Below are positions 3,452-47,310 of a stretch of 64,000 nucleotides of DNA, piece after piece; within the stretch, counting starts at the first letter, position 1, and every line of letters starts with the position of its first letter. The notes under the pieces were generated by a model, which did no database searches, was not told where the DNA came from, and saw only the letters and a program-made list of their open reading frames with translations. The stretch lies in NCBI GenBank assembly GCA_001819985.1, contig MHOE01000013.1, forward strand, positions 1,088 through 65,087. The letters are read 5' to 3'. Made by a program: the position numbers and the translations under genes. The stretch is from Candidatus Spechtbacteria bacterium RIFCSPHIGHO2_02_FULL_43_15b. GTDB lineage: Bacteria > Patescibacteriota > Minisyncoccia > Spechtbacterales > HO2-43-30.

Positions 3452-4024
3452 TTACTTTCCCTGAAAAGGAACTCCCAACTGCTTCAATAATTCCAATCCC
3501 TCCTCGCGGATTCTCGCATTAGTAACTATCGTTATCTCCATGCCCCAAATTTTCCTGACTTTGTCATGCGGTATATCGGGAAATATCATCTGCTCCTTAA
3601 TGCCTATTGTCATATTGCCGTGTTCGTCCACGCATTTACTGTCAATGCCCCTAAAATCCCTTGAACGCGGGAAAGCTATTTTTATAAGGCGGTCTAAAAA
3701 ATCATACATCCTACCGCCTCTTAACACAACCCTAAGACCGCTTATCATTCCCTGTCTTAATTTGAACCCGGATATTGATTTTTTCGCCCTAATAATCTGT
3801 GGCTTCTGTCCGGTTATCAATGTCATCTCTTCTATAATATCCTCTATCGAGGAAAGCTCGCCCGAAGCGCCTTCGGATCCCTTAAAGGTGTTGACAATCC
3901 TTCCTACGCCCGTGTTAACCACGATTTTCTCAAGTTTGGGAACGGCAAAAACATTCGCATAGCCAAATTTTTCCTTGAGTGCGGGAATAACTTTATCTAT
4001 GTAATTTTCTTTTGCATTTGGCAT
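3452..4024 (-). CDS. rplE: 50S ribosomal protein L5
   Basis: The start was moved to the internal ATG at 4024 (MPNAKENYIDKVIPALKEKFGY...VPKLEKIVVNTGVG), which aligns to the uL5 N-terminus. The longer ORF-track start (4180) would overlap rplX. Confidence 0.85.
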   Translation of the reverse strand: MPNAKENYIDKVIPALKEKFGYANVFAVPKLEKIVVNTGVGRIVNTFKGSEGASGELSSIEDIIEEMTLITGQKPQIIRAKKSISGFKLRQGMISGLRVVLRGGRMYDFLDRLIKIAFPRSRDFRGIDSKCVDEHGNMTIGIKEQMIFPDIPHDKVRKIWGMEITIVTNARIREEGLELLKQLGVPFQGK

Positions 4025-4064
4025 ATTCGGTATACGACGATAATTTATAAAGATAGGATCAAAT

Positions 4065-4370
4065 CTATACGGCTTCGCCGCATTTTTTGCATATCCTATA
4101 TTTTTTGCCGTCCGCAATCTTACGGCCAACCCTGACTGCCTTTGAACACTTGGGGCACAAAAACTTCGCGTTTGACGCATCGAAAGAAGCCGCTACCTCC
4201 ACGGTTTGGCCTTTTTCTCCTTGGCGCCTCGCCTTCACGCGTTTTTTCTGAATATTTATGCTCTCAACAACAATCTTCCCCTCTTTCGGGAGAACTTCAG
4301 TTATTTTCCCTTTCTTGCCGCGATATTTTCCGGAAATCACCAGTATATTGTCGCCTTTGTGTAACTTCAT
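4065..4370 (-). CDS. rplX: 50S ribosomal protein L24 with a C-terminal 4-Cys zinc-ribbon insertion
   Basis: KOW-domain start MKLHKGDNILVISGKYRGKKGKI. The C-terminus carries CPKC...CKKC in place of the usual short tail. Confidence 0.85.
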   Translation of the reverse strand: MKLHKGDNILVISGKYRGKKGKITEVLPKEGKIVVESINIQKKRVKARRQGEKGQTVEVAASFDASNAKFLCPKCSKAVRVGRKIADGKKYRICKKCGEAV

Positions 4371-4418
4371 AAAATATTAAACTTGCTTAACTAAATAAAA
4401 TTTATGTGCCATTCGTCA

Positions 4419-4784
4419 TTACAGCACTTCCGGCGCCAGCGAAGCTATCTTATCAAATCCCTTCTCCTTTATTTCTCTAGGTATGGGACCAAAAATTCTC
4501 CCGCCCTTCGGAACATCTCCATCCAAAATGACCGCGGCATTGTCGCTGAACCTTATGTATGAACCGTCTTTCCTTCTATATGCTTTTTTCTGCCTAACTA
4601 TAACGGCTTTGACAACTTCCTTCCTCTTCACTATTCTTCTTGGTTCAGCTACCTTAACAGACGCAACCACTATATCTCCCAAAGAAGCGTATCTTCTCCT
4701 TGTGCCTCCAAGTACCTTAAAACACTGGATAATTTTTGCTCCGGTATTGTCTGCTACATTTAATTTTGTCCCCGCTTGAATCAT
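4419..4784 (-). CDS. rplN: 50S ribosomal protein L14
   Basis: Start set at the internal ATG ([17 protein letters not shown]...), matching the uL14 N-terminus. The upstream 19-codon extension in the ORF track overlaps rpsQ. Confidence 0.85.
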
Positions 4785-4818
4785 TTTGTTATATTTAAAA
4801 AATTGGCCGTAATTTTTG

Positions 4819-5061
4819 TTACTTACCCTCCGGAACAGCAAATTCGACGATTCTCCATCTTTTATACTTGCTTATCGGCCTCGTCTCCTCGATAACCACG
4901 ATCTCGCCGATTTTGTGCTTATTTTCGGGATCGTGCGCCTTATATTTTTTTGTGACCCTAAAACGCCTCTCGTATTTGGGATGTTTTTTTAATCGCGAAA
5001 CCTCCACAACGACAGTTTTGTTCATTTTATCCGATACAATTGTGCCTTTAAGTCGTTTCAT
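4819..5061 (-). CDS. rpsQ: 30S ribosomal protein S17
   Basis: 80 aa starting [21 protein letters not shown], the uS17 OB-fold signature. Position between L29 and L14. Confidence 0.85.
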
Positions 5062-7072: not shown

Positions 7073-7357
7073 TTAACTTTTCTTCTCCAGTTCTTGTTGC
7101 ATTTTTCCTCCGTGCCTAATGAATTTTCTTGTTGGTGAAAATTCGCCCAGTTTATGGCCGACCATGTCTTCAGTAACAAAAACGGGGATATGCTCTCTAC
7201 CATTGTGAACCCCGAATGTAAATCCTATCATTTCAGGGCTTATCGTGCAAGATCTTGACCATGTTTTTATTACTGCCCTGTCGCCAGCTTTAAGATTAGC
7301 TATTTTCTTTAGTATTCTTTCATCTATGTATGGTCCCTTTTTTAGTGATCGCGGCAT
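7073..7357 (-). CDS. rpsS: 30S ribosomal protein S19
   Basis: 94 aa [19 protein letters not shown]...GHKLGEF, canonical uS19. Confidence 0.9.
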
Positions 7358-7448
7358 GATTTTATGATTAGATTAGCAATTTCTATGAACACACGAAACG
7401 GTTTTATAAATCGTAGCGTATTCGTAGAGAATTCATAAATACTATCCA

Positions 7449-8285
7449 TTACTTTCTTTTTTTATTCTTTCTCCGATGCAATATCATACTGTTCGAATAT
7501 TTTTTGTGTCTGCGCGTCCTTACGCCGTACGCATTCTTGCCCCAAGGCGTTTTTGGATGCTTTAACCCTATCGGCGCTCGTCCCTCGCCTCCTCCGTGCG
7601 GATGATCAACGGGATTCATCGCCGAACCCCTGACATGGGGCCTTATTCCCTTGTGCCTATTTCTTCCGGCCTTTCCCATAACCTCTAAGTTGTGTTGCCT
7701 GTTTGAAACAAACCCTATACTGCCGTAACATTCAGCAAAAACTTTTCGCACTTCCCCCGAAGGCATAGCGAGCATTGTGTGCTTCCCTTCCGTCGCCAGA
7801 ACTTTTGCGCCTGTTCCACCGGATCTTGAAATCTTTCCTCCTTGCCCCGGATTTATCTCGACATTGTACACAAACGCGCCGACGGGCACATATTTCAGTT
7901 TCATTCTGTTGCCTGTTTTTACCTCTCCGGCCTCTTCATAACAAACAATGTCTGTTCCGACATTTAACCCGTCGGGTGCTACTATGTAAGCACTTGTTTT
8001 GTCGCCGTATTCAATCAGCGCAATCCTTGCGCTTCTGTTCGGATCATATTCAATACCAAGCACCTTAGCCGTTTCGCCTATCTTTTTTTCTCCGAAATCT
8101 ATTATTCTGTATCTCCGTTTCGCTCCTCCCCCTTTGAATCGCACGCTTATTTTACCCCTGCTTCTGCCTCCCGTTTTATGCAAAGGCGCCAAAAATTTTT
8201 TCTCGGGAGTTTTTTTGGTTATCATGCTAAAATCAGGTCTTGTCATACCGCGTCTTCCAGCACTTGTTGGTTTGTATAATTTCAT
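7449..8285 (-). CDS. rplB: 50S ribosomal protein L2
   Basis: 278 aa with uL2 motifs ([30 protein letters not shown]). Confidence 0.9.
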
Positions 8286-26789: not shown

Positions 26790-27092
26790 ATGCAAATAAT
26801 AATACAAAACCCAAGACAAAATCTAGTAAACGCATTGAGGCAATGCGGATATCATTTCGAACGCCACCATATACAAACCAGCGAGGTTAGCGCGGCAAAA
26901 AATTTAGGAATCGGCGGATTCCCCCGCTTTCATTGCTACGCGAAATTAGACGATGATAAAAATATTGTTATAAACCTTCACTTGGACCAAAAACGCCCAA
27001 GCTACGCGGGAACTCGGACGCACGGAGGCGAATATGACGGCGAATTGGTTCGACAGGAAGCAGAGAGGATAAAAAAACTGTTTGAGATATAA
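26790..27092 (+). CDS. Hypothetical small protein (100 aa)
   Basis: ATG start, His-rich. No recognised family. Confidence 0.4.
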   Translation: MQIIIQNPRQNLVNALRQCGYHFERHHIQTSEVSAAKNLGIGGFPRFHCYAKLDDDKNIVINLHLDQKRPSYAGTRTHGGEYDGELVRQEAERIKKLFEI

Positions 27093-28820: not shown

Positions 28821-29729
28821 TCAAAAACTTTTACCGTTACTTCTTAACAAAATATCGCCCTCCAAGTCCGTCCTTCTAATCTCTATACCATATTTTTCAA
28901 ATCTTTGCAAAACTGCATCATGCGGATGTCCATAGGAGTTATCTCGGCCAGCTGATATAATGACTGTTTTTGGATTTACTTCTCTAAGAAATAATTCAGA
29001 CGAAGATGTTTTGCTCCCGTGATGCGGAATTTTCAAAATTTTAGATCCTATCGCGTTATCGCTAGAAACTATCAATTGCTCTACCACTCTTTCAATGTCA
29101 CCCGTAAAAAGAAATGTGTCATCTCCGTACACTAAACGAAAAACAACCGACAAATCGTTCTGCTCAAAACTAACGGGGTCTGACCCCGTTAGTTTTGAGG
29201 GGTGGAGGATTTCCAAGAAAGATACTTTGGACATCCATATCCTCATCCCGTATTCACCGGCTAAAACCTCCGCCCCTTCGGATAAAACCGCCTCATTCCA
29301 TTTTTCAAAAATTTCGGTTTCCGCCGGTACGCCGTTCCATATTACCGTTCCTATTTCGTAATGTTCCAATGCGGGCACAAGGCCAGTTATGTGATCCGCG
29401 TCCGCGTGAGTCGCAATCATAATATCTATTGACCTATCCCAAAATGGCATAACCGAATTCAATTTTTCGACAACTTTGTCATCCGGCCCGCCGTCAACTA
29501 AAACTTGCTTGCCGTCGGGAAAATTCATAAAAATCGCGTCTCCTTGCCCAACATCAAAAAAGTAAATGCCAAGCTCTCCTGTTTCCGCGTTTGCGAAAAC
29601 GGCAATCCACGATAAAATCGCCACGATAACGAGCGTTATAAGTATAATATACCCGTGCGCTAATTTGAAAAAAATATAATTTATGGAAGATTTTATTGAC
29701 TCCATGTTTTTGCGATTATACAACGCCAA
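28821..29729 (-). CDS. Membrane-anchored metallo-beta-lactamase-fold protein of the ComEC C-terminal nuclease-domain type
   Basis: N-terminal TM, then DVGQGDAIFM...HADADH...GD and the C-terminal motifs typical of the ComEC/Rec2 Lactamase_B domain. Confidence 0.7.
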   Translation of the reverse strand: MALYNRKNMESIKSSINYIFFKLAHGYIILITLVIVAILSWIAVFANAETGELGIYFFDVGQGDAIFMNFPDGKQVLVDGGPDDKVVEKLNSVMPFWDRSIDIMIATHADADHITGLVPALEHYEIGTVIWNGVPAETEIFEKWNEAVLSEGAEVLAGEYGMRIWMSKVSFLEILHPSKLTGSDPVSFEQNDLSVVFRLVYGDDTFLFTGDIERVVEQLIVSSDNAIGSKILKIPHHGSKTSSSELFLREVNPKTVIISAGRDNSYGHPHDAVLQRFEKYGIEIRRTDLEGDILLRSNGKSF

Positions 29730-29807
29730 CCCAAAAACAGTAAACTCTAATTCGGCAATGCCTGTTATGTATTTTAAGCATACAAATAAAAAGACGCTTT
29801 AGCGTCT

Positions 29808-30704
29808 TTATTTTTTAAAATCTTCCTCTATCTGCCTGACTAATTCATCCAGGTCAAGCAAGAGATCGTTTTTCTTGGATATGTCAACTTCCGTGTAAAG
29901 TCGCTTTCCTTCCCTCACGCCCTCGACCCCAGAATACCCCGTGACATCGAAAACCAAGATTCCCGTAAAAGGAGTGCTTACTCCCCTTACCCCCATTGTG
30001 TTGCTTGTATTCTTCCGAACTTTTTCGGAAAATAAACTTGGGCCCAAAGGATGAAGTTCATAAATGTGTTCTACGCTAATACTTAAATCTTCTATGCGGA
30101 TTTTCCGTACGGAACCATCTTCATAGAAAATTGACATTTCCACCCTTTTGAGCGGGTCTCCCTCTTTGTAATTTCTTAGAATAACTGAACCCGAAAGCTT
30201 TCCGTCATTACCGTAAACATTAAATCTTAGGGTAAAATTTCCGCCCGAATCAACTTGAAGAACATACCTTGAATCAAAATCCCCTTCAGGCAATGTCAGC
30301 TTCATCAGTCCATCTTTCACGACCCTGCCAAATGCCGGATCCGAATCTATTAGTACGGGGGTTGGAATTGGAGTTGGCTCTAATGTCTCTATCTCCAGTT
30401 CTGGCACTTCCAAAATCGGCGTTGGCGTTTCAGTCGGTACAGTTGTGGGGCTTATTAGCGGCATAGGCGTTATTGTAGGCAAAGGTACGGGAGTACTAAT
30501 CGGCGCAACTTCATCGGCGATTTCTTCCGATTTTTCACTAGACCAGAAAGGCAAGCCGAATACGCCAATACTGTAAAGAAAAACTAAAAACAGAAAAATA
30601 AAAACAATAGCGGCGAACAAGCCCAACAACAAATTATGCCTGTCTCCTCCGCTTCCTCTATATTCGGGTCTTCGCGAATTGTTCATTTTTACTCCTTCTT
30701 CCAT
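29808..30704 (-). CDS. Hypothetical membrane-anchored protein with a Pro/Thr-rich linker and C-terminal globular domain
   Basis: N-terminal TM (LLLGLFAAIVFIFLFLVFLYSIGVF), a PT-rich low-complexity linker, then a ~190-aa domain. It lies 9 nt downstream of the FtsZ-like gene on the same strand. Confidence 0.55.
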   Translation of the reverse strand: MEEGVKMNNSRRPEYRGSGGDRHNLLLGLFAAIVFIFLFLVFLYSIGVFGLPFWSSEKSEEIADEVAPISTPVPLPTITPMPLISPTTVPTETPTPILEVPELEIETLEPTPIPTPVLIDSDPAFGRVVKDGLMKLTLPEGDFDSRYVLQVDSGGNFTLRFNVYGNDGKLSGSVILRNYKEGDPLKRVEMSIFYEDGSVRKIRIEDLSISVEHIYELHPLGPSLFSEKVRKNTSNTMGVRGVSTPFTGILVFDVTGYSGVEGVREGKRLYTEVDISKKNDLLLDLDELVRQIEEDFKK

Positions 30705-30713
30705 TCAGACCTA

Positions 30714-32036
30714 CTACAAGCTCGGCAAATCTTCGCCGACCCGTTTTACAGATCCCCAATTATCTTTCCGCTTGGCGCTTCGCTCGTTAATTTTGTCCTT
30801 GTATTTCAGCGCCTCTTCATAAAACCACTTTACCTGATCCATTAAAGCGCCTTCGCCGATATCCGTTAAAATAACCGTAACTCCTATGGTATTGGACGAT
30901 CTTCCTGGATAAGTACCCTTTCTTCTTTTCGCGTCGGGCACTTTTTCCGCCAGCACCGAATCCATCATTGATATAATCTCCTCGGTTGCTTCCTCGGCCG
31001 GCCCGCTGAAAAGGCCTATCACGCCGCCCGCATCGTACAATGCCAATCCGGAATCTTTATGTGTGAAATCGCAACCGACAGAAAGTTCGCCTAGGGCCTC
31101 GTCCACCGCATTTCTCGCGCGTTCAATTTGAGCTTGCGTGGCAGAAATATGCCTTGGATTGCCTCTGCCGAATATACCCGCCTTTTCTTTTGGTCTAGGG
31201 GGGACATCTTTGAAGCTCACGCCTATTGCCGTGTGACCTTTAAGAACCCTGATCAAATCGTTCGCGTCCAAAACTTCCCCGATGTAATTTACGCCGGTTT
31301 CCTCTCCCACTGAAAGTATATCCATAAAAGAATCGACGATCCTGCGGTTTATAAGCAAATAGTTTACTTTCATCGAATCGGACTTTCGCACGAATCTCTC
31401 GTTGTCTATTATAAACACCGCGTCCGCTTTTGAATTTTCCAAAACCCTCTTCAAACAAGTCGCCGTGTTTACGACGCTATCCGCGTCATCATAGTCGCTT
31501 CTGAAGGGAAGTACTAGCATCGCGTACACGGGCTTTTTGAATTCGTCCTTAAGCATATCCACTATAACCCCAACGGATCCCGATCCCGTGCCTCCGGCCG
31601 TGCTGGCTATCACAAGAATCGCGTCTGCGCTGTAAACATTTCCGTACTCCCTTATTGTGCCCACTATTTTCTTTGACTCTTTCTTCGCCTGCTCTGCCCC
31701 ATCCTGGTTTACCTTTCCCGCCCCGCGTCCCCGGAAGTTATCGGCCGCTCCAAGCAAAATTGAATGATCCTCGGTTTGGGGAATATTCTCCAGACCGTAC
31801 ATATCGCCCTTTCCGAGGTTAAGCGCAAAAATCCCCTTGATTATGTCGGGATCCTTTTTCCTGATATTGCTTCCTTCCTTGTCGCCTGTAATAATCCTTA
31901 CTTTCCTGTTTTCCCACAGCCAATAAGCCATGCGAGCGAATTCATCGGCTATGTTGCCGCCGCCCTGACCGCATCCTACAATGACAAGTTTCATATATCG
32001 CCTCCTTTGCGAAGCATTTACATTTTCAAGGTGCAA
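30714..32036 (-). CDS. Divergent tubulin/FtsZ-superfamily GTPase (FtsZ-like paralog, not the canonical ftsZ)
   Basis: IVGCGQGGGNIA (G-box 1) and the exact tubulin signature GGTGSG (ASTAGGTGSGSVG). 440 aa with a long non-FtsZ C-terminal region. The canonical ftsZ is at 36666-37811. Confidence 0.75.
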   Translation of the reverse strand: MHLENVNASQRRRYMKLVIVGCGQGGGNIADEFARMAYWLWENRKVRIITGDKEGSNIRKKDPDIIKGIFALNLGKGDMYGLENIPQTEDHSILLGAADNFRGRGAGKVNQDGAEQAKKESKKIVGTIREYGNVYSADAILVIASTAGGTGSGSVGVIVDMLKDEFKKPVYAMLVLPFRSDYDDADSVVNTATCLKRVLENSKADAVFIIDNERFVRKSDSMKVNYLLINRRIVDSFMDILSVGEETGVNYIGEVLDANDLIRVLKGHTAIGVSFKDVPPRPKEKAGIFGRGNPRHISATQAQIERARNAVDEALGELSVGCDFTHKDSGLALYDAGGVIGLFSGPAEEATEEIISMMDSVLAEKVPDAKRRKGTYPGRSSNTIGVTVILTDIGEGALMDQVKWFYEEALKYKDKINERSAKRKDNWGSVKRVGEDLPSL

Positions 32037-32164
32037 GGATAACCCGTTTGGCTATCGTGCTATTGTTAATCAGTTTTACTTCCGTGTCAATAATTCTTAT
32101 GAGCTAGCGAAAAACAGCAAATCCCGAATCTGAGACAAAATACCTTAGAAAAAATTCGAATTTT

Positions 32165-33367
32165 TTATCTTTCCATCTTAAAATGCTTGACTAGAAGCCA
32201 TAGAGAGACAAAATACAACACCCCCAAATACCACGGAAACGCTTCAATTTCCCAAACTGCGAATGGCATATCCGAACTTATATCTATGACCTTATAGGAA
32301 TAACTTAAAAACAGCCATACTGGCCAAAACAATATCCTTCCGACAGTTTCCGATAGAATACCCGCGATACTCGCTATAAATCCCAATCCCAAAGTCAAGG
32401 AAGTCATCGGAATTATCAAGATATTTGTAAAAATCGACACCAGCGACAATTGCCCGAAATTAGAAATAAGTATCGGCGCAGTGAACAAAACAGACGGCAC
32501 TGTCATTGATATAGTGTTTCTTATGCCAAATAACTGCGGAGTGAATTTCAAATTATCCATAAACCATGATGAAGTCATAGATATTCCAAGCGTAGCAAGA
32601 AATGACAACTGAAATCCCACATCAAATTTCAAAAGCAAGGGGTTTGACATTAGCATCACCGCCGCGGCCAACACCAGCAACCGCCGCGCCTGCGAAAGGC
32701 GTCCCGCTTTTTGCGCGAAAAGAAGTATTCCTCCCATTATCCCGGCTCTCACCGCCGATGGAGGAGCCCCGACCATTATTGTAAAAAGGACTATGAAAGA
32801 GACCGCAAAATAAAACGCGTGATGACGCCACATACCAAGCATTAAACCTAGGCCTATCAGCATATTTGCCAAGATAATAATATTCATCCCCGAAATCGCC
32901 GTTATGTGACGCGTACCCGATCGGTTCAATTTTTCTTTCAAATCACGCGACAGCCGTTCTGTCTCGCCAAGCATAATAGCTCCAAACAAAGAACTTTCAG
33001 GAGGAGAAAGAGCGGAATCCATACTCTTTCTTAAGCTAGTTTTGAAATCGCCTATTTTATTCTCAAGAAAATTTGCCTCGGCGTATTCTTCTTTTGGATT
33101 GGTTCTCTTGTAATAATCAAGTGTGTCTTTTGGAGCATCAAACATCTGATATCTAAAAATCCCCGCCGTAAAAGACAAAAATAAAAACCCGACAATAACC
33201 GCGCTTTTGTTTCTCCGCCAAAATATCGAAATTATCCCCGCTGAAAAAACGAAAAATAACCATACAAAAATCTGCGAAACCAAATACGCCGAGCTTATAA
33301 AAACGCCGGCGATAAAACATAGGCAAATATAAAGAAAAATGCGCGAAGGATGCATTGTAAGATTCAT
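32165..33367 (-). CDS. comEC: ComEC/Rec2 N-terminal part (DUF4131 + competence channel domain) without the MBL domain
   Basis: Multi-TM protein with GMNIIILANMLIGLG...SFLATLGI, the competence-domain signature. 400 aa, lacking the C-terminal lactamase domain. Confidence 0.7.
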   Translation of the reverse strand: MNLTMHPSRIFLYICLCFIAGVFISSAYLVSQIFVWLFFVFSAGIISIFWRRNKSAVIVGFLFLSFTAGIFRYQMFDAPKDTLDYYKRTNPKEEYAEANFLENKIGDFKTSLRKSMDSALSPPESSLFGAIMLGETERLSRDLKEKLNRSGTRHITAISGMNIIILANMLIGLGLMLGMWRHHAFYFAVSFIVLFTIMVGAPPSAVRAGIMGGILLFAQKAGRLSQARRLLVLAAAVMLMSNPLLLKFDVGFQLSFLATLGISMTSSWFMDNLKFTPQLFGIRNTISMTVPSVLFTAPILISNFGQLSLVSIFTNILIIPMTSLTLGLGFIASIAGILSETVGRILFWPVWLFLSYSYKVIDISSDMPFAVWEIEAFPWYLGVLYFVSLWLLVKHFKMER

Positions 33368-33466: not shown

Positions 33467-35761
33467 CTACGCTGTTTTTACTGCCGACGGTTTTGTCGCT
33501 TCTTCTATCTCGCAAACTCCCCCTACGCAAGCAAGCTCTTTCGACCCCTGCGTCGCGTCCTCCTTTTCGTAATAAAGAATCTGCGAAAAATCAACCTTGG
33601 GCATATTGGCCGCCAATTCATTATATCTTTTCTCGTCTATTTCCTCATACGGCGCCATCGCGTAGGCATGATTATTGCGGGGCAAGAATGAAAGCCCCCC
33701 TAGAATATCCCAATTGCCATACAGCCAGTTAGCGGTTGTCAGCCATTCATCTTCTCCCACGGAAATAGTAACGGATGGATTATGCTCCGTATAATTTTCC
33801 TTGACCATTTTCCAATGCTCCAGCTGATCTAACGCGGAAATATCGTCCCTAACTATTGCCACATCCGGGGCCTTAACCGGAAATTCTAAAATGAATGTCG
33901 AGGCGGAAGAAACTAACTGGCCAACTTCCGGATAATATTTTGCCTTTTGGTCTCTCAACATATGAAACAGAGGATCGCTCGCTGAAATTCTTATTCTTCT
34001 TATGTAATACTTCGCGTGCCTTGGATGCATCCCCGAAGAAGCATCCACAAGCTGGGAAACTGTTCCGGACGGCTTAACGCAAGTAACGCATGTGGACGGA
34101 TTTATACCAAATTTCTTAGCGTACTCAAAATTTACTCTCACCGCTTCTTCTTTTATGGCTTGCAGAATTTCCGTATCGCGAACAGCGGGACAATCCCATT
34201 GTCCCGTAAGAGAAACACCGAGAAGCCGCTCTTCTTCGCAATTTTTCTTCCACTCGCTTGAAAGGTAAGGAAAATTCGTAAGCGTTGACTGGTATGTTCC
34301 GAGAATCGAAGCTAATCGCGCCTTTTTAACCAAGGTCTCCTTGGTATCTTCAGCTCGGCACACCACTTCCGACAAATTGCAGAATTCTTTCGATCTCAAC
34401 ACAATCTCCCCGCAAGGGTTCGTGCCTGCCGTGTGCCAGTATTTTCCGAACTTTTTCCACCGCCTTTGCGGAAGCTGATGCTTTAACCCCCCCCTGTTGA
34501 ATATCCCGCGTTCGCCAGTACCGTTTCTCGCCAAAGCAAGCCATTCTTCCACGAACTCGATATTAGAGGGCTTTTTATTGTACGCCGATGAATTGTTTGC
34601 CATTTGGCGATGCGGCTCGAGAAGATAGAACTGCCCCTCTTTGGCGTGACGCATTTCCTGATCGTCTAAATCTGACAAACTTATCATAGCGCTTCTTCTT
34701 ACCCCTCCCATAACAACTACCTCGCCTATTTTGCATAAAATGTCGTGAGCGTCTATGTTCGACAGCCTTTTACCTTGACGAGACAGAATTTTTTTTCGCG
34801 CGAAATTAAGCAGGGAACGCAAGGGCTCCGGACCCGAACTTTGCCCGCCCATTGTTAAAAGCCGCGAACCGGCCGGCCTTATCTCTGAAAAATCGAAGTC
34901 CACATCGCTTCCTTCATACCACGCCTTTAATCCAAGAGTTAATGCGTCTCCCCAGCCCTCTTTGCTGTCTTTAATAATATGCGTCGCAACTTTTTTGTTT
35001 GTTTGAAATTTAATTATAGGAAGCTGTTGGATCGTCTGGCTTTCCACTGAAAATCCGACTCCCGCGCCGCACATTGAAAGATACATCACTTCCGCGAAAT
35101 CCTCGATCTTAGAGGGCGCTATGTACGAACAGTTATACGCGCTCACATTGGTTTTCTTCGCCGCGGGACCGGCAGACCACATTAAACGCATAGAGGGCAT
35201 TACTTTCTGCGTTAATATCGCCTCCTCTATCTCTTTGTACTCGCTCTCCGTCAATTTTTTGCCGAGATTTTCTTTCATAAAATCTACATATCTCGCCACT
35301 GTTTCGATCCAAGTTTCGCGCCTGCCTTGATCGGGAATCCATCTTGAATATGTGCGGTAATATATAAATTCAGAAAGCGCGTTTCTAAAATATTTTTTAC
35401 TCTCTTCCGCCAAGCGCCGAACATTTTTAGGGACAAATTTCCTAGCGGCTCTAACTTTTGCTCTTTCGCTTCGGTATAGTATGTAACCTTTAGCGACTTT
35501 CGCCATACCTTGATTTATCAATGCCTCTTCAACCAAATCCTGTATCTCCTCCACGCCGGGTATATCGCCCTTCTTAAATTTTTTGTTGAGGGATAATACA
35601 ACCCTGTCCGCAACTTTTTTTGCAGTCCTTATATTCTCCTTCCCGTCAACTGCATTTATCGCTTTATTTACGGCATTTACTATTTTAGCAACATCGAAAT
35701 CAACAATATCGCCGCTTCTTTTTTTGACCTTTATTATCTTTGCCCTTAAAATGCTCGGCAT
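33467..35761 (-). CDS. nrdJ: Class II (adenosylcobalamin-dependent) ribonucleotide reductase with N-terminal ATP-cone
   Basis: ATP-cone at the N-terminus (KRSGDIVDFDVAKI). The active-site NPCGEI motif is typical of class II RNR. 764 aa. Confidence 0.85.
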   Translation of the reverse strand: MPSILRAKIIKVKKRSGDIVDFDVAKIVNAVNKAINAVDGKENIRTAKKVADRVVLSLNKKFKKGDIPGVEEIQDLVEEALINQGMAKVAKGYILYRSERAKVRAARKFVPKNVRRLAEESKKYFRNALSEFIYYRTYSRWIPDQGRRETWIETVARYVDFMKENLGKKLTESEYKEIEEAILTQKVMPSMRLMWSAGPAAKKTNVSAYNCSYIAPSKIEDFAEVMYLSMCGAGVGFSVESQTIQQLPIIKFQTNKKVATHIIKDSKEGWGDALTLGLKAWYEGSDVDFDFSEIRPAGSRLLTMGGQSSGPEPLRSLLNFARKKILSRQGKRLSNIDAHDILCKIGEVVVMGGVRRSAMISLSDLDDQEMRHAKEGQFYLLEPHRQMANNSSAYNKKPSNIEFVEEWLALARNGTGERGIFNRGGLKHQLPQRRWKKFGKYWHTAGTNPCGEIVLRSKEFCNLSEVVCRAEDTKETLVKKARLASILGTYQSTLTNFPYLSSEWKKNCEEERLLGVSLTGQWDCPAVRDTEILQAIKEEAVRVNFEYAKKFGINPSTCVTCVKPSGTVSQLVDASSGMHPRHAKYYIRRIRISASDPLFHMLRDQKAKYYPEVGQLVSSASTFILEFPVKAPDVAIVRDDISALDQLEHWKMVKENYTEHNPSVTISVGEDEWLTTANWLYGNWDILGGLSFLPRNNHAYAMAPYEEIDEKRYNELAANMPKVDFSQILYYEKEDATQGSKELACVGGVCEIEEATKPSAVKTA

Positions 35762-36665: not shown

Positions 36666-37811
36666 TTATCTCATTTTTTTTCTAATGAAAGCCGGTATAT
36701 CCCAGTCCTCGTCTTTATCGCTTTCTTCCTTGCTGTCTTTTTTTTCTGCCATTTTTTCCTCTCTTTTTGGCTGTCTTTCTTCTTCTATTCTTGAATTTGC
36801 CTGAAAACTGTTGTTTTGGGCCGTATCCTCTTTTGGAGCAGTCAATTTCCGGTCCAGTTCGAAAAATCCGGTCGCAATTACCGTAACTTTTATTTCGCCC
36901 TTTTTTAATCTATCGTCTATCACAGCTCCAAAAATAACTTTCGCGTCAGGATGTATAGAATCGGTTATAACTTTCGCCGCCTCGTTTATTTCGTACATAG
37001 TCAAATCGTCAGTTCCGCTAACCGAGAACAGCAAACCTCTCGCTCCATCAACGGACAACTCGAGTAAGGGAGAGTTTATTGCCATTCTTGCCGCCTCTAT
37101 AGCCCGTTCTTCTCCAGTCGCTCTTCCTATGCCCATAAGAGCGGATCCCGCATCGTGCATTATGGCCCTTACATCCGCGAAATCCACATTTACTATGCCT
37201 GGCTTTACCACTAAATCGGAAATGCCCTGAACTGCCTGCCTAAGCACATCGTCAACTATTCCAAATGCCTCCACAAGCGTTGTCTTCCTCTCGATTATAC
37301 TCAATAATCTGTCGTTCGGTATTGTTATCAGCGTATCCACGCGCTCTTTTAGGTTATTTAGGCCCTCTTCCGCTATCCTCGCGCGTTGAGTTCCTTCAAA
37401 AGAAAACGGTTTTGTCACCACGCCTACCGTAAGAGCTCCTGTTTCCCTCGCCACTTCGGCAACCACCGGAGCGGCTCCCGTACCGGTGCCGCCGCCTAAG
37501 CCGCAGGTAACAAAAACCATATCCGCCCCCTTAAGAGCTTCGTGTATATCGTCTTTGTTCTCCTCGGCTGATTGACGGCCAAGATTTGGGTCCATTCCCG
37601 CTCCCAGACCTCTGGTAACATTTTTGCCCACATGGATTTTCAAACTCGCCTTTGCGTGATGAAGGTCTTGAGCATCGGTATTTACGGCAATAAATTCCAC
37701 TCCTTGAATTTTCGCTTCAAACATTCCGGAAATCGCGTTATTGCCGCCTCCGCCGACGCCAACAACTTTTATTTTAGCGAATGTTTCTATATCGGGTTTT
37801 ATGGAAGGCAT
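36666..37811 (-). CDS. ftsZ: Cell division protein FtsZ (canonical)
   Basis: [11 protein letters not shown] and [15 protein letters not shown] motifs. C-terminal conserved peptide DIPAFIRKK. 381 aa. Confidence 0.9.
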
Positions 37812-41783: not shown

Positions 41784-42353
41784 TCAATATTCCGGCTCTT
41801 TTATTATTTCGAAACTGTCGAACGGCCACGCTCTTATCCATGCCTTTCCTATAATAGCGCCGCGTTTCACCGACCCCCAGCTTCTGGAATCCGAACTTGA
41901 ATTCCTATTATCCCCTAAAACAAAATACTCGTCTATCCCAAGTATAGCCTCCATGTCTCCTTGGGTTACTTCATGAAGATACTCCTCCTCCAAAAGTTTT
42001 AGAGAATTGTGATCCTGCCCCACCCACACACTACCGCCTTTTATGCTTATCACTTCTCCGGGCATACCTATTATCCTTTTTATGTAAAACTGTGAAGTGT
42101 TTTGCGGCGGCCTGAAAACCACGACATCTCCTCTCTGCGGCTGGCCGAAATGGTATCCTATTTCGTTTATAATTAAATAATCTCCCCCCTTGAAATTGGG
42201 CTCCATGCTGGCGCCTCTCACAAAAAATGGCTGCATTACAAAATATCTTATAGGCACAATTATAGCTAAAGAGATTAAAACAATCTTAAAAATCTCCCAC
42301 AAAAAAGAAGTTGAACTTTTTATTAAACTCATGCAAAGATGATACCACAACAT
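41784..42353 (-). CDS. lepB: Signal peptidase I
   Basis: N-terminal TM, GASMEPNF (catalytic Ser box), and GDNRNSSSDSR box. Confidence 0.8.
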   Translation of the reverse strand: MLWYHLCMSLIKSSTSFLWEIFKIVLISLAIIVPIRYFVMQPFFVRGASMEPNFKGGDYLIINEIGYHFGQPQRGDVVVFRPPQNTSQFYIKRIIGMPGEVISIKGGSVWVGQDHNSLKLLEEEYLHEVTQGDMEAILGIDEYFVLGDNRNSSSDSRSWGSVKRGAIIGKAWIRAWPFDSFEIIKEPEY

Positions 42354-42499
42354 TTAATGATTTGCAATCGCGTATTGTCCGAATCAATATGTTGTTACTC
42401 GTACTATTGCGTAAAATCGTATATGTTGTTTATAATTACTACATTGACACACTAATCAACGAATTTATCATATTTATTAAAAACTGTTTAGCTAAAATT

Positions 42500-43393
42500 A
42501 TGCCAGATCCCAATGCTGAAAATTTTAGACCGGAAAAGTCCGATGCGGAATCAAACACCGAACTTCCAGAAACGCAATCGCCCCTCGAAAAATATGAGGC
42601 GCTTATCAAGCGACTTATTTTGAAATTCGGCGGAGAAGGCGCGTTGGATTTAGTCCGAAAAGCCAAAGCTGAAGTCCAAAAAATACAAGATAAACTGCGA
42701 AAATCAAAAACTGATGGAGAAAAAATGACTCCCGAAGAAATCACGCAAGAATCCGACATTACTGAAGGAGAACTAGATATTCCAGAAACAGATAGAGTGC
42801 CCGACACGCTATTTTCGCATGGCACTTCGGGCGAATCAAGCATAACAAACGAACAATTCTTGAATATTTTAGAAATGATAAACCGTGCCAAAGCCCGACA
42901 AAAACCGCCATTGCCCGAAGGACTCACCCAATCTCATGAAAATGCTTCTGCTACGGAAAAACCCGAAAAAAAACAGGAAGATCCTGAACGATTTTTATCA
43001 GAAGGCGCGGCTCAATTATCTCCAGAAACATCAGAAAGGAACAGCCTCGAAGCGATAAAAGGCAATTTAGCTAGAGGCGCTAAAACCCTCGCGATATTAG
43101 GGTTAAAACCTTTCGATGCCTTAGGTGCTATAATTGACACAAAACTATTCGAACGACAGCAGACGCGTTTATACCAAAAAATATCAGAAACAGAGAACTT
43201 GCTTCACCGCCTTGAAACTCTTTCCCCCGCTAAAATAGAAGCCGAACATATAAGAGCTCTCCGGGAGAAACTGGGCGAAAGATTGAACGAGCTCAACCAG
43301 AAAAGGGACGCTCAAATTAGACATTTCTCTGGTCTCACAACCGCGAGGCGCATTATCCAATCACTCAAAACCGAAGAACCGAAGATTAAATAA
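42500..43393 (+). CDS. Hypothetical acidic, largely disordered/coiled-coil protein
   Basis: Start moved to the ATG at 42500, because the ORF-track start overlaps lepB on the opposite strand. No recognisable domain. Confidence 0.45.
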   Translation: MPDPNAENFRPEKSDAESNTELPETQSPLEKYEALIKRLILKFGGEGALDLVRKAKAEVQKIQDKLRKSKTDGEKMTPEEITQESDITEGELDIPETDRVPDTLFSHGTSGESSITNEQFLNILEMINRAKARQKPPLPEGLTQSHENASATEKPEKKQEDPERFLSEGAAQLSPETSERNSLEAIKGNLARGAKTLAILGLKPFDALGAIIDTKLFERQQTRLYQKISETENLLHRLETLSPAKIEAEHIRALREKLGERLNELNQKRDAQIRHFSGLTTARRIIQSLKTEEPKIK

Positions 43394-43644: not shown

Positions 43645-44670
43645 TCAAGCGGACGCTTTTTTTGTCCTCATCTCGACCGCGCCAACTATACTAAGATATG
43701 CCAGGTCTTTTTTAAGCACTCCGAGTTCCATACCCCGCTTCTTTTTCTCTTCCAAAATATCCTCAAATATCCGCTTTAATTTTTCCGCGGATCTAAAAAG
43801 TGTCTCATTTTTTTCGTCCCCCCTTAATTCTTCGGCAATTCTGATTACTTGAGCCAATATTTCGTTAATGTACACAAGCTGAATCGGGTCATTCTGCGCT
43901 TCAATAAAAAGCTCATCGTATTTTTTTTGCAAAGTATCCTTTAATCCCTTATCCACTGCCACATCGATTGATTTCTCCAACCTTATCATTTGAGCTTGCC
44001 TATCAAAAAACGCGTCAGCGTTAGCGCCGTCAATCCCTATCGCAACCGGAATTACGCCTTGAATTTCACCCTTAAAATTACTACCTTGAATCTGGCTAGC
44101 GAAAAATTCAACTTTTGCTCCGCCATTTTTTATTTTCAAAAAATTTCGAAAAATTTTTCTGTGTACCGTACTCGCTTTCAGCGATACATCTATGGAAAGA
44201 GCGATTTTATCGCCGTCTTCCGAGTCGAATTCAACGACAACATCCACGCCGTTTTTCAAATCGTCGTATTCTGTAGTTCGAATTGCGTACGCATTTTCTC
44301 CAAACCAATTGCCCATTTCTATATTTTCTCGGACAAGCGTTTCCAGCGCTTTATTTCTTAATTCCCCGCGAATCATCGCTTTGCGGACTTTTTCACGCTC
44401 TTTCTCGCGTAAATCTGGATCTTGGATATCTTTTACCGCATTATCAACATCCTTCTTGAATTGCTCGACAAAACCCGCTTTAATATTTAATTGATCTCTA
44501 ATTGCCGCGTCTATTCTTTCATCTCCATAAACATCTCTGAAATTTTCTACACTCAATCTACGCCCGAGTTCGTGCGCTATTATCAAATCTACATTTCCCT
44601 CCGAGCTTATCGGATAGTCCTCGGTTTTTATAGGTCCTTTCTCTATTTTATCTGCCATAGTAAATTTCAC
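43645..44670 (-). CDS. Hypothetical protein (341 aa), last gene of the ATPase operon
   Basis: Clean ORF downstream of the T4CP-like ATPase on the same strand. No recognisable motif. Confidence 0.5.
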   Translation of the reverse strand: MKFTMADKIEKGPIKTEDYPISSEGNVDLIIAHELGRRLSVENFRDVYGDERIDAAIRDQLNIKAGFVEQFKKDVDNAVKDIQDPDLREKEREKVRKAMIRGELRNKALETLVRENIEMGNWFGENAYAIRTTEYDDLKNGVDVVVEFDSEDGDKIALSIDVSLKASTVHRKIFRNFLKIKNGGAKVEFFASQIQGSNFKGEIQGVIPVAIGIDGANADAFFDRQAQMIRLEKSIDVAVDKGLKDTLQKKYDELFIEAQNDPIQLVYINEILAQVIRIAEELRGDEKNETLFRSAEKLKRIFEDILEEKKKRGMELGVLKKDLAYLSIVGAVEMRTKKASA

Positions 44671-44775: not shown

Positions 44776-47310
44776 CTAAACACCCTCTAATAATGTCCCG
44801 AACCTGTCCATAATCTCCTGCTCTACCATATTCCTCGGCCTTCCGTACTTTAACTTTGAAATCTTTTTTATCGGCTCGATGATACTCGGGTCTCCCTGTT
44901 TTGGTTTTAGGGTCTCGACTCTGAACGGCGGATAAACTTTATTGTTCATCATAAGCTTCAAAACGAGCCGGAAATTATCGAGGTTGACAAGATCAAATCG
45001 AGAAAATTCCGGCTGGAATTGTTTCTCCAAAAACTCCGCGTCGCTCGCGCCTATGCGGAAAGCTCCGATTGTGCCCACATTACCAAGCACCGCGTTTTTT
45101 ATATCTTCCTCTAATTGGGGTATGTATTGGTGAGCTAAAATAAGATTTAACCGATATTTTCTTGCTTCCGAAAGAATAGTAGCTATGCTATCCGTGGAAA
45201 AATTCTGGAATTCGTCCAGATACAGATAAAAATCCCGCCTTTGCTCTTCCGGAATCTTACCTCTCCTCATAGCGGCCATCTGAATTTTAGAAACAAGAAT
45301 AAGCCCGAGCAATGAACTGTTAACTTCGCCAGTCGCGCCCTTAGAAAGATTCGCGAGAAAGATTTTTCCTTCATCCATCAGCTGGGCAAGATTGAATGAC
45401 GACTTCTGCTGGCCTATGATATTGCGCATCATCTCATTTTCTATAAACCTTCCGATTTTTGAGACAACATAACCCAGCATATCGGATCTCGTGTTGCCGG
45501 TTGTCTGCTTCCATTCTTTAATCCAGAAATTTCTAACCACGGGATCTTCCACCCTTCTTAATCTTTCTTCCATAAACTCGGAGTCGGTAAACATACGGGG
45601 AATTTCAAGGAGAGTCCCGGGATTTGCCTTGTCCGCCATTAACGCTAGCATCGCGTTCCTCATATAATGCTCGAACATAGGCCCTATCATTTCAGGCGGA
45701 AAAAGTTTTTGGAAAATCGCAACCATCTCCTGAACCGCGAAGTCCTTCTGCTCTGGAGTTTCATATTCAAGCATATTTAGCCCCATCGGCCGATCGCCAT
45801 CAAACGGCTCGAAGAGCACCACATCTTCTACTCTTTCCTTCGGAATATTGGAAAGTATATGCTCCACTAAATCTCCATGGGGATCAACGACCCCTACTCC
45901 CTCGCCATTTTGGATGTCTTGCCTTATCAATTCTTCCAATAAACTGGATTTTCCCGTACCGGTCTGACCTATTACATAAAAATGTCTTCGCCGATCATTC
46001 CTTGAAAGAAATGCGACTTCCCTGTCATCGCCCCTGAAATTAACCCTGCCAATCACGGGGAACTTGCCTTCTTGCTTGCCTTCGGATATTTCCTGCGGAG
46101 GAGGCGCTGATTCCGTTGCTTTTGCCATCCTGATATACGGCGTCTCGATAAATCTTGTCGGGAAATGATAAACGCTTGTCAATTCCTCTATATTAAGAAT
46201 GTTGCTTTCAGCTGGAGTGAAATTCCTAAAGCTAAAGTTATAAAGAAACTTTTTGAGCTGGCCTTTTTTCTTGACTGTCTTAGCTTCAAAACCATTTAAG
46301 GAATAAAGCGAGAACTGACTGAAACTGTTTAAAAGATGCTCCAGTATTTCTTCGGATCTCTCCTTGGTCTTTGAAGACGCTACCAACCGTATATTCGCCA
46401 TAAATACCTGCTTCTCAAACTTGTCCTGAATTTTCTGAACAGTTCTGTCGTCAACCACCTGAATCGGCATTGTAGGTGTCATACTGTCCCTATAATCCTT
46501 TTGCTCATCGTTGGGACTCGCCATTCCTATATAACTCATAATATTAACGCTGGATTGTTTCTTGAAATTTTGGCGATTGTCTTTTGGTTTCTTTGAAGAA
46601 ATCCCGCCGATGCCGGATTTCAACGATTCGGCCGCCGCAACCTCGGCTGTGCTTCCACCTTTTATCTTCGCGATAACATTGTATCCTATGTTTTTCCATT
46701 TCTTCTGCGGATACGGGCTTATAACAACCTGTATCGCGGCTCCTTCATCCGCCGCTATTTTGCTTAACGCGTTTGTAATTGTCGCAAGCGGGTCTTTGTC
46801 CAGATTTTCATAAGTATTTATAGGAAATACGGGATAATTTTCAAGCTTGAAATATGCTCCAACACTCACTCCGCCCCTCTCAAAAATAGTGTAATCCTGC
46901 GGCATTTCTTCCACTATTGCCCGCGGATACACGCCGTGGACAAATTTTTCAAATCCGCTTCTCATATATCTTGGGACCGCAACATAAAACTCAATATCGC
47001 TTCCTCCGGTTTGAGAAGCTATCTCGAACGCTACCCGCGGAGTTTCGCTTGTAAATTTCTTGAAAAAACTCGGCTCTCTAAGATGAAGGAAGCCCGTAAA
47101 AATTTGCTGCATATCGCCTATAAGCTCTTTCTCCTGCCTCTTCATAATATCTTCGTCGCCGAAATCGTACTTAGGCATCAATACTAGAAACAGAGCCATA
47201 TCAAAGCTTGAGATAATTTTTCCTTTTTCGCTTACCCTCCTCAAAAAAAACAAAAATGCGCCCGCGAAAAACAGGATTATTGCAAAAAATATTGTAAACC
47301 AGTTTATCAA
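44776..47310 (-). CDS. Membrane-anchored P-loop ATPase of the VirD4/TraG/TraD (type IV coupling protein)-like / DUF87 HerA-FtsK superfamily
   Basis: N-terminal TM. Walker A HFYVIGQTGTGKSS, Walker B YLYLDEFQNF, and the downstream LILAHQ motif. 844 aa. Confidence 0.6.
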   Translation of the reverse strand: MINWFTIFFAIILFFAGAFLFFLRRVSEKGKIISSFDMALFLVLMPKYDFGDEDIMKRQEKELIGDMQQIFTGFLHLREPSFFKKFTSETPRVAFEIASQTGGSDIEFYVAVPRYMRSGFEKFVHGVYPRAIVEEMPQDYTIFERGGVSVGAYFKLENYPVFPINTYENLDKDPLATITNALSKIAADEGAAIQVVISPYPQKKWKNIGYNVIAKIKGGSTAEVAAAESLKSGIGGISSKKPKDNRQNFKKQSSVNIMSYIGMASPNDEQKDYRDSMTPTMPIQVVDDRTVQKIQDKFEKQVFMANIRLVASSKTKERSEEILEHLLNSFSQFSLYSLNGFEAKTVKKKGQLKKFLYNFSFRNFTPAESNILNIEELTSVYHFPTRFIETPYIRMAKATESAPPPQEISEGKQEGKFPVIGRVNFRGDDREVAFLSRNDRRRHFYVIGQTGTGKSSLLEELIRQDIQNGEGVGVVDPHGDLVEHILSNIPKERVEDVVLFEPFDGDRPMGLNMLEYETPEQKDFAVQEMVAIFQKLFPPEMIGPMFEHYMRNAMLALMADKANPGTLLEIPRMFTDSEFMEERLRRVEDPVVRNFWIKEWKQTTGNTRSDMLGYVVSKIGRFIENEMMRNIIGQQKSSFNLAQLMDEGKIFLANLSKGATGEVNSSLLGLILVSKIQMAAMRRGKIPEEQRRDFYLYLDEFQNFSTDSIATILSEARKYRLNLILAHQYIPQLEEDIKNAVLGNVGTIGAFRIGASDAEFLEKQFQPEFSRFDLVNLDNFRLVLKLMMNNKVYPPFRVETLKPKQGDPSIIEPIKKISKLKYGRPRNMVEQEIMDRFGTLLEGV

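Follow-up and report, generated by a model that had tools for sequence, protein, structure and literature searches.

CetZ proteins form a branch of the tubulin superfamily that controls cell shape in haloarchaea, and both their connection to the cell envelope and their partner proteins are unclear. Here we describe a two-gene unit for a CetZ-like GTPase and a bitopic membrane partner in Candidatus Spechtbacteria bacterium RIFCSPHIGHO2_02_FULL_43_15b, a bacterium of the candidate phyla radiation (CPR). The window analysed is a stretch of 64,000 nucleotides (nt) from its contig MHOE01000013.1, and coordinates refer to the window unless another locus is named. Hallmarks described for CetZ1 are an acidic residue in the T7 loop, a long M-loop with a hydrophobic tip, and a conserved hydrophobic C-terminal tail (10.1101/2024.04.08.588506). 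CetZ-like proteins of Chloroflexota-Dehalococcoidia are already in the literature: Santana-Molina et al. (2023) mentioned them briefly, in a sentence or two, as "sparse paraphyletic groups", placed them in their tree as CetZ-like and outside the canonical CetZ node, and found the gene neighbourhoods of CetZ and CetZ-like groups to be unrelated (PMC9871819).

The GTPase of the window is evidently of the same family as these Chloroflexota proteins, with which it shares 58–64% identity and whose C-termini match the CetZ_C hidden Markov model (HMM); the published account does not cover the partner with its tail motif, the exchange of ectodomains or any member from the CPR. With archaeal CetZ (CetZ1 and CetZ2, PDB 4b46 and 4b45; Methanosaeta CetZ, 3zid) it has in common the Tubulin plus CetZ_C architecture, an intact T7 loop, a long M-loop with a hydrophobic tip, a short hydrophobic C-terminal peptide and co-existence with FtsZ. 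Archaeal CetZ is, however, euryarchaeal whereas the window protein is bacterial, identity between them is only about 20–28%, and the C-terminal motif of CetZ1 is LESLF as against LPxL in the window family. An obligatory adjacent bitopic partner is a further feature of the latter; by the published account, CetZ and the CetZ-like groups have unrelated gene neighbourhoods (PMC9871819). The "divergent second FtsZ" reported for CPR bacteria in the same study is by its description an FtsZ-derived copy and appears to be a different protein. Searches of open-access and bioRxiv full text brought up no account of the bitopic partner or its tail motif, of the exchange of ectodomains, of the occurrence in CPR or of the relatives in phage contexts described below.

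The GTPase gene is read from the minus strand (30714..31994; stop codon TAG, 30714–30716), as are all elements of the unit. An earlier note on this DNA, made from the sequence alone, had described a 440-amino acid (aa) tubulin/FtsZ-superfamily GTPase in a two-gene unit with a membrane-anchored protein. Both open reading frames (ORFs) were found where the note had placed them, together with the GQGGGN and GGTGSG motifs, and the GTPase ORF is real; its length had to be corrected, given that TTG 32036 is a mechanical ORF start only. The true start is likely ATG 31994, preceded at 6 nt by the ribosome-binding site (RBS) AAGGAGG (32001–32007), which yields a protein of 426 aa. The GTPase domain (aa 3–203; 31386..31988) contains the motifs GCGQGGGN (T1) and AGGTGSGS (T4; GGTGSG at aa 134–139, 31578–31595) and matched Pfam Tubulin (PF00091) with 75.1 bits against a cutoff of 33 (E = 1e-20). 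The C-terminal half, which the earlier note had taken to be non-homologous, turned out to be a CetZ_C domain (PF21011; aa 206–382, 30849..31379), with 36.7 bits against a cutoff of 21.6. Inside this domain lie the T7 loop GEVLDAND (aa 239–246; 31257–31280) and a long M-loop with the hydrophobic tip KAGIFGR (about aa 264–286; 31137–31205), and the protein ends with a long helix (aa 383–422 in the AlphaFold2 model) and the terminal peptide LPSL (together 30717..30848). All three CetZ1 hallmarks, the acidic T7 loop, the long M-loop with a hydrophobic tip and the hydrophobic C-terminal peptide, are present. In the alignment with CetZ1, GEVLDAND corresponds to VVDSSEII, with D246 at the position of E218, and KAGIFGR corresponds to GGGLLSR, the counterpart of the tip being GLLSRL.

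A search of PDB sequences with the single GTPase sequence gave Haloferax CetZ1 (4b46) as the best match (4e-26, residues 58–422), followed by CetZ2 (4b45) and Methanosaeta CetZ (3zid), with TubZ, gamma-tubulin and FtsZ behind. With a profile of 56 family sequences the match to CetZ1 extended over the full length (4e-33), those to CetZ2 and 3zid reached 2e-18 and 3e-11, and TubZ (5e-8), gamma-tubulin (4e-5) and FtsZ (2.5e-4) were weaker. An AlphaFold2 model built on the family alignment had a mean predicted local distance difference test score (pLDDT) of 80.5 and a predicted template-modelling score of 0.83. CetZ1 (4b46), CetZ2 (4b45) and Methanosaeta CetZ occupied ranks 1 to 3 among PDB structures in Foldseek, and the target-normalised template-modelling score was 0.89 for both CetZ1 and CetZ2 compared with 0.68–0.79 for FtsZ; phage tubulins fitted less well than CetZ (about 0.5 for PhuZ). 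The HMM and structure comparisons that the earlier note had proposed thus returned a tubulin-superfamily fold with CetZ as its nearest relative. In a tblastn search of a plasmid collection with the GTPase, 18/18 matches were haloarchaeal genes of the tubulin/FtsZ family.

The functional motifs are conserved throughout the family, which is strongly constrained, with a mean column identity of 75% in its alignment. G9, Q10, G11, G12 and G134–G139 are invariant among the 56 homologues, and GEVLDAND is invariant in 32/32 non-redundant homologues. In all 32 the M-loop tip is hydrophobic with basic flanks (GIFGR, SLLGR, GFFSKF), and all 32 end in (L/V)PxL, with P424 and L426 invariant. On the evidence of sequence profiles and the structure model, the protein is a CetZ-like member of the tubulin superfamily, and it is predicted to be catalytically competent, given that T1, T4 and T7 are invariant across the family.

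The partner gene lies downstream of the GTPase gene (29808..30686; stop codon TAA, 29808–29810). The distance of 9 nt given in the earlier note holds for the first ATG of the ORF (30704). ATG 30686 is most likely the true start: the RBS AAGGAG (30692–30697) precedes it at 5 nt, and in the alignment its Met coincides with the Met that invariably opens the homologues. Counted to this codon the gap is 27 nt and the predicted product is 292 aa long. As the earlier note had recognised, the protein has a transmembrane (TM) helix, a Pro/Thr-rich linker and a C-terminal domain, the last of about 180 aa. In front of the helix stands a short tail predicted to be cytoplasmic (MNNSRRPEYRGSGGD; 30642..30686), in which alignment of homologues revealed the motif M-[RK]-x-x-[RK]-x-x-E-x-R; the tail peptide reads MNNSRRPEYRGSGG. 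The TM helix (ORF aa 22–45; 30570..30641) was modelled by AlphaFold2 with pLDDT 81–97 and has a Kyte-Doolittle mean of 3.0 over 20 aa. The linker (30342..30569), assigned by reading of the sequence and from the AlphaFold2 model, has no secondary structure, with pLDDT mostly 44–62 and below 50 over most of the stretch. The remainder of the protein (29811..30341) is an ectodomain that we call type A, with a beta-rich core and a C-terminal helix.

The partner matched nothing in Pfam, NCBIfam, PADLOC or PDB sequences, and a search with its single sequence recovered only the partner itself. Its homology was detected via the genes downstream of related loci and a profile built from them, by which it was recognised as a relative of the gene that follows each CetZ-like homologue examined. 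The N-terminal peptide, the TM helix and the Pro/Thr linker are its constant parts, and the linker was found in all partner types. In the tail the Glu, the Arg two residues after it and an Arg or Lys three residues before it are each conserved in 32/32 (acidic E8 and basic R10, numbered from Met1 of the partner), and the Met stands at a fixed distance from the motif in 30/32 loci. A strict regular expression for the motif missed 8 loci, which by eye contain variants of it (RVDERR) or slightly longer N-termini. On average the tail has 4.2 Lys and Arg residues, and the stretch of 20 aa that follows the TM helix has 0.6; because of this excess, a topology with the N-terminus inside and the C-terminus outside is predicted, with the N-terminus inside in 32/32 pairs. 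Two unrelated types of outer domain are swapped among partners while tail, TM helix and linker are kept, and it is therefore the cytoplasmic tail of about 15 residues and the anchor that travel with the GTPase. At one locus (L083), downstream of a GTPase 46% identical to that of the window, there are two partner-type genes: one (L083 1614–2687) encodes a full type-A partner of 357 aa, and the other (L083 1422–1601) a protein of 59 aa reduced to the tail motif, here ARIPERYG, and a TM helix, which by its predicted composition is a natural "minimal adaptor".

The association of the two genes is general and holds across phyla, and its recurrence, like the Pfam Tubulin match, lies well outside what chance would produce. 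In 73/73 related loci with readable downstream sequence, a partner-type bitopic gene lies directly downstream of the GTPase gene on the same strand, 9–140 nt away, and it is also kept where the GTPase is only 46% and 40% identical to that of the window. In the window, a promoter-like site (TTGACA-17 nt-AACAAT, 32062..32090; putative, 10/12 matches in a consensus scan) lies in the 170-nt spacer between the stop codon of the ComEC-N gene and the start of the CetZ-like gene, and a hairpin resembling an intrinsic terminator (29790..29809; 8-bp stem with 4 GC pairs, then the T-run TTATTTGTAT) stands directly after the stop codon of the partner gene. Each gene has its RBS, 27 nt separate them, and a single promoter-like site and a single terminator-like hairpin enclose the two, which look like a self-contained operon. 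The two-gene module of the earlier note was borne out; no Rfam element was found in the leader or the region of the pair. We regard the identity of the GTPase and its pairing with the partner as established with high confidence.

More than 600 homologues of the GTPase were found. The best 120 of these are all full-length and 58–64% identical, with Tubulin and CetZ_C domains (PF21011 precomputed on 120/120), and the named members among them all belong to Chloroflexota, Dehalococcoidia or SAR202. An exhaustive search of 1.84 billion cluster representatives returned only 337 at E ≤1e-3 and 28 at ≤1e-30, and the family is therefore a compact branch. The module is native to many Chloroflexota, in which its chromosomal position is stable, beside panB and a DUF2520-family (Rossmann-like) gene or beside other housekeeping genes. 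A second CPR contig, of metagenome origin (L015, with its twin L014), has the gene order of the window, namely ribonucleotide reductase, ComEC-N, GTPase, partner, metallo-beta-lactamase (MBL), nucleoside diphosphate kinase and a UMP-kinase-like gene. Identity between L015 and the window is 60–82% for the neighbouring genes, 63% for the GTPase, in line with those neighbours, and 29% for the partner. Given this shared synteny and the divergence of the neighbours, the pair is neither contamination nor a recent arrival, and by these comparisons its descent at this one chromosomal site has been vertical in at least two CPR genomes that are well diverged; the rest of the window consists of genes of an ordinary CPR chromosome. 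The G+C content at third codon positions (GC3) of the window GTPase gene is 0.54 versus 0.41–0.48 in neighbouring genes, that of the partner gene is not raised, and in the second CPR genome any rise is marginal (0.45 for the GTPase gene versus 0.40–0.46), so that compositional support for a recent horizontal transfer of the GTPase gene appears weak. The module may have reached the CPR by ancient transfer or may reflect shared ancestry with Chloroflexota; a neighbour-joining tree leaves the nesting of the CPR sequences within Chloroflexota undecided.

Two genes flank the pair exactly, a ComEC "Competence"-domain gene (32165–33367, minus strand) and an MBL gene with an N-terminal TM helix (28821–29729, minus strand), which look like two halves of ComEC, so that the place between them may be an insertion site; their L015 counterparts lie at 3686–4918 and 7206–8105. 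The sole break of synteny seen between L015 and the window is a gene for a type I phosphodiesterase/nucleotide pyrophosphatase (L015 2369–3619, minus strand) between the ribonucleotide reductase and ComEC-N genes, absent from that place in the window.

The canonical FtsZ is encoded separately at 36666–37811 (minus strand), with ftsA directly upstream, 4.6 kb from the pair. It scored 427 bits with TIGR00065 (the FtsZ equivalog) and has Tubulin and FtsZ_C domains and the FtsA-binding tail, in agreement with the earlier note, which had set the second protein apart from it. BLASTP between the CetZ-like GTPase and this FtsZ gave E = 0.17, which is not significant. The GTPase reached only 41.6 bits with TIGR00065, for which the cutoff is 295.2, its Pfam search gave no match to FtsZ_C (PF12327), and its tail LPSL is unlike the FtsA/ZipA-binding D-I-P-x-F. 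A canonical FtsZ identity was ruled out by the missing FtsZ_C domain and the TIGR00065 score, and a frameshifted or duplicated ftsZ by the lack of significant similarity to the FtsZ of the window, the intact ORF and the existence of hundreds of full-length homologues. The neighbours of the GTPase gene are the ComEC halves in CPR and panB and the DUF2520-family gene in Chloroflexota, and no division-gene neighbourhood was seen at these loci.

Relatives of the GTPase also occur without a partner. One of them (P0178; 420 aa, 49% identical to the window GTPase) was found at L080 4229–5491, and also in L081 and L082. Its contig is phage- or plasmid-like, with a ParB-like gene (phrog_1033) directly upstream, several PHROG matches, and genes for a nucleoside deoxyribosyltransferase, an Acb1/RNA-ligase-like protein and a radical-SAM protein; no bitopic partner was present at the P0178 loci. 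This protein may represent use of the same GTPase lineage by mobile elements, which could have carried it from one phylum to another. A second lineage (P0185/P0345; 392 aa, 37% identical, CetZ_C-bearing) has 269 cluster members, including a protein of a Dehalococcoidia metagenome-assembled genome. Its gene (L085 842–2020; L086 2264–3442, assembly GCA_036514775.1) is convergent with a gene for the large subunit of phage terminase and has no partner, which suggests a prophage-borne CetZ-like protein. No relatives of the core GTPase family were found in a phage database or in viral contigs.

The probable function of the pair is to tie a filament in the cytoplasm to the cell envelope. In the mechanism that we propose, the GTPase would polymerise in the cytoplasm in a GTP-dependent manner, as CetZ1 and CetZ2 do, and the N-terminal peptide of the partner would dock on the GTPase body; the TM helix and the Pro/Thr linker would then connect the filament, via the exchangeable extracytoplasmic domain, to the envelope or the exterior. 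Coupled to the envelope in this way, the pair would serve as a cytoskeletal module that sets cell shape or organises the envelope, as CetZ1 does in haloarchaea, and would work beside the canonical FtsA-FtsZ division genes, not in their place. The accessory cytoskeletal system suggested in the earlier note is thus a plausible reading. A role in shape or envelope is likelier than one in cytokinesis because a full FtsA-FtsZ system is present and the Chloroflexota copies lie outside division clusters. We lean slightly towards this whole reading, a CetZ-like filament that a dedicated TM adaptor attaches to the envelope, for shape or envelope functions and not for cytokinesis; the adaptor mechanism by itself we rate at close to even chances. 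MreB-RodZ and FtsZ-ZipA offer a working analogy, in that each joins a cytoplasmic filament to a protein that crosses the membrane once and has a flexible linker rich in Pro, and RodZ, like the partner, has its N-terminus inside and its C-terminal domain outside. They have no relationship to the pair in sequence or fold, however, and RodZ has a folded cytoplasmic helix-turn-helix domain and ZipA, whose N-terminus is outside, a folded cytoplasmic domain, whereas the partner has a cytoplasmic peptide of some 15 residues.

Several observations weigh against this reading. Only about 15 residues of the partner face the cytoplasm, the basic residues conserved among them could simply reflect the positive-inside rule, and binding of the tail to the GTPase is proposed from conservation and co-occurrence. 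LPxL-like tails also occur in the partner-less relatives in phage contexts, so that the LPxL tail, the obvious candidate for a docking peptide, is not confined to GTPases with a partner. For the proposed cellular role we extrapolate from CetZ1 of haloarchaea, to which identity is only about 23%. The type-A ectodomain was modelled with moderate confidence (pLDDT 64), and the model had no informative structural match. Deep support is weak in the neighbour-joining tree, which included only one archaeal reference, and the placement of the GTPase relative to canonical CetZ rests on profile scores, structure scores and the published tree.

The main rival is co-transcription without coupling, in which the tail would be a topogenic or insertion signal, the GTPase would be bound to the membrane through its M-loop or would be cytosolic, and the partner would be an independent envelope protein. 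Basic residues abound in the tail, as they would in any N-in anchor, the hydrophobic M-loop tip with its basic flanks could bind membrane by itself, and CetZ1 binds liposomes alone in vitro (10.1101/2024.04.08.588506). The positive-inside rule does not, however, explain the invariant Glu of the tail or the fixed spacing from Met1, and this rival is also at odds with an adjacency that survives replacement of the whole ectodomain and with the copy reduced to a tail and a TM helix; we consider it unlikely. Somewhat less likely again is an accessory division system, a second Z-ring-like filament with a ZipA-like anchor that would help or replace FtsZ-FtsA. A bitopic anchor beside a GTPase of the tubulin superfamily bears a superficial resemblance to FtsZ-ZipA, and in the window the pair is close to ftsA-ftsZ, but the canonical system is present with its FtsA-binding tail, the Chloroflexota pairs adjoin panB, DUF2520-family or housekeeping genes and not division genes, and the globular domain of the partner is outside the cell, unlike that of ZipA. 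Among characterised proteins, moreover, the nearest relatives are CetZ1 and CetZ2, which serve shape and motility, not division (PMC9871819; 10.1101/2024.04.08.588506).

A partition or positioning system of the TubZ/PhuZ type that has landed in the chromosome would account for the relatives in phage contexts, one with a ParB-like gene and PHROG matches (P0178) and another beside a terminase gene (P0345), and for the raised GC3 of the window GTPase gene. TubZ and PhuZ also belong to the tubulin superfamily, but their similarity to the GTPase is weaker than that of CetZ in profile (TubZ) and structure (PhuZ), and the pair is chromosomal, with a membrane partner and no DNA-binding adaptor. The phage-context relatives have no bitopic partner, no TubR/ParB-like DNA-binding gene, integrase or phage gene was seen near the window pair, the phage database and viral contigs gave no matches, and synteny is kept in the second CPR genome, as is the position in Chloroflexota; such an origin is improbable. 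The least credible of the alternatives is membership in the FtsZl1/FtsZl2 families (Makarova and Koonin 2010), to which the earlier note had likened the protein. These families are likewise divergent, co-exist with FtsZ and are proposed to act on membranes, and the GTPase is a divergent FtsZ-like protein with a membrane-protein neighbour. FtsZl1 proteins are, however, of the Tubulin_2 type and are encoded in operons with a von Willebrand factor A (vWA) protein, a divergent P-loop GTPase or an OmpA-family protein (PMC2875224), none of which was found as a neighbour in the window or the related loci. Tubulin_2 (PF13809) reached only 18.6 bits over 43 residues of the GTPase, against a cutoff of 27, and with a CetZ_C domain present and CetZ structures as the best matches the comparison did not hold; FtsZl membership was ruled out. 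Neither protein of the pair matched models of anti-phage defence (PADLOC).

Some further features of the window and of L015 were recorded. The class II ribonucleotide reductase of L015 (47–2320) has an apparent intein with an HNH-type endonuclease just before the NxCGEIVLRS motif, an insertion that the ribonucleotide reductase of the window (33467–35761) is without. An 844-aa type IV coupling protein resembling VirD4/TrwB is encoded at 44776–47310 (minus strand), consistent with the monoderm-type type IV secretion system reported for Patescibacteria; the adjoining ORFs at 42311–43393 and 43645–44670 had no Pfam match. A 100-aa ORF at 26790–27092 (plus strand), on the strand opposite to its downstream neighbours, gave a weak, sub-threshold match to AHH/HNH nucleases (E = 0.02); it may be a fragment of a toxin, or the match may be due to chance.

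As for the wider meaning, we tentatively suggest that the partner is the first dedicated TM adaptor known for any CetZ-type cytoskeleton, in which a cytoplasmic peptide of about 15 residues would capture the filament and relay its position across the membrane to interchangeable outer domains. This would amount to a patterning of shape and envelope without MreB in Dehalococcoidia, SAR202 and some CPR, bacteria that are wall-poor or ultra-small, by a lineage also recruited by phages with a ParB-like partner; as a whole this proposal is possible but falls short of even odds. If true, bacteria would have an equivalent of the CetZ radiation of archaea, one that switches partners by a logic of its own. 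An obligatory, genetically linked TM partner would offer a testable handle on the link between CetZ and the envelope, in the form of a 10-residue motif in a two-protein system. CetZ-type cytoskeletons would not be confined to archaea, being widespread in marine and subsurface Chloroflexota and reaching into the CPR. The tiny genomes of CPR bacteria keep very few accessory systems, and retention of the module there under purifying selection therefore argues that it does something important.

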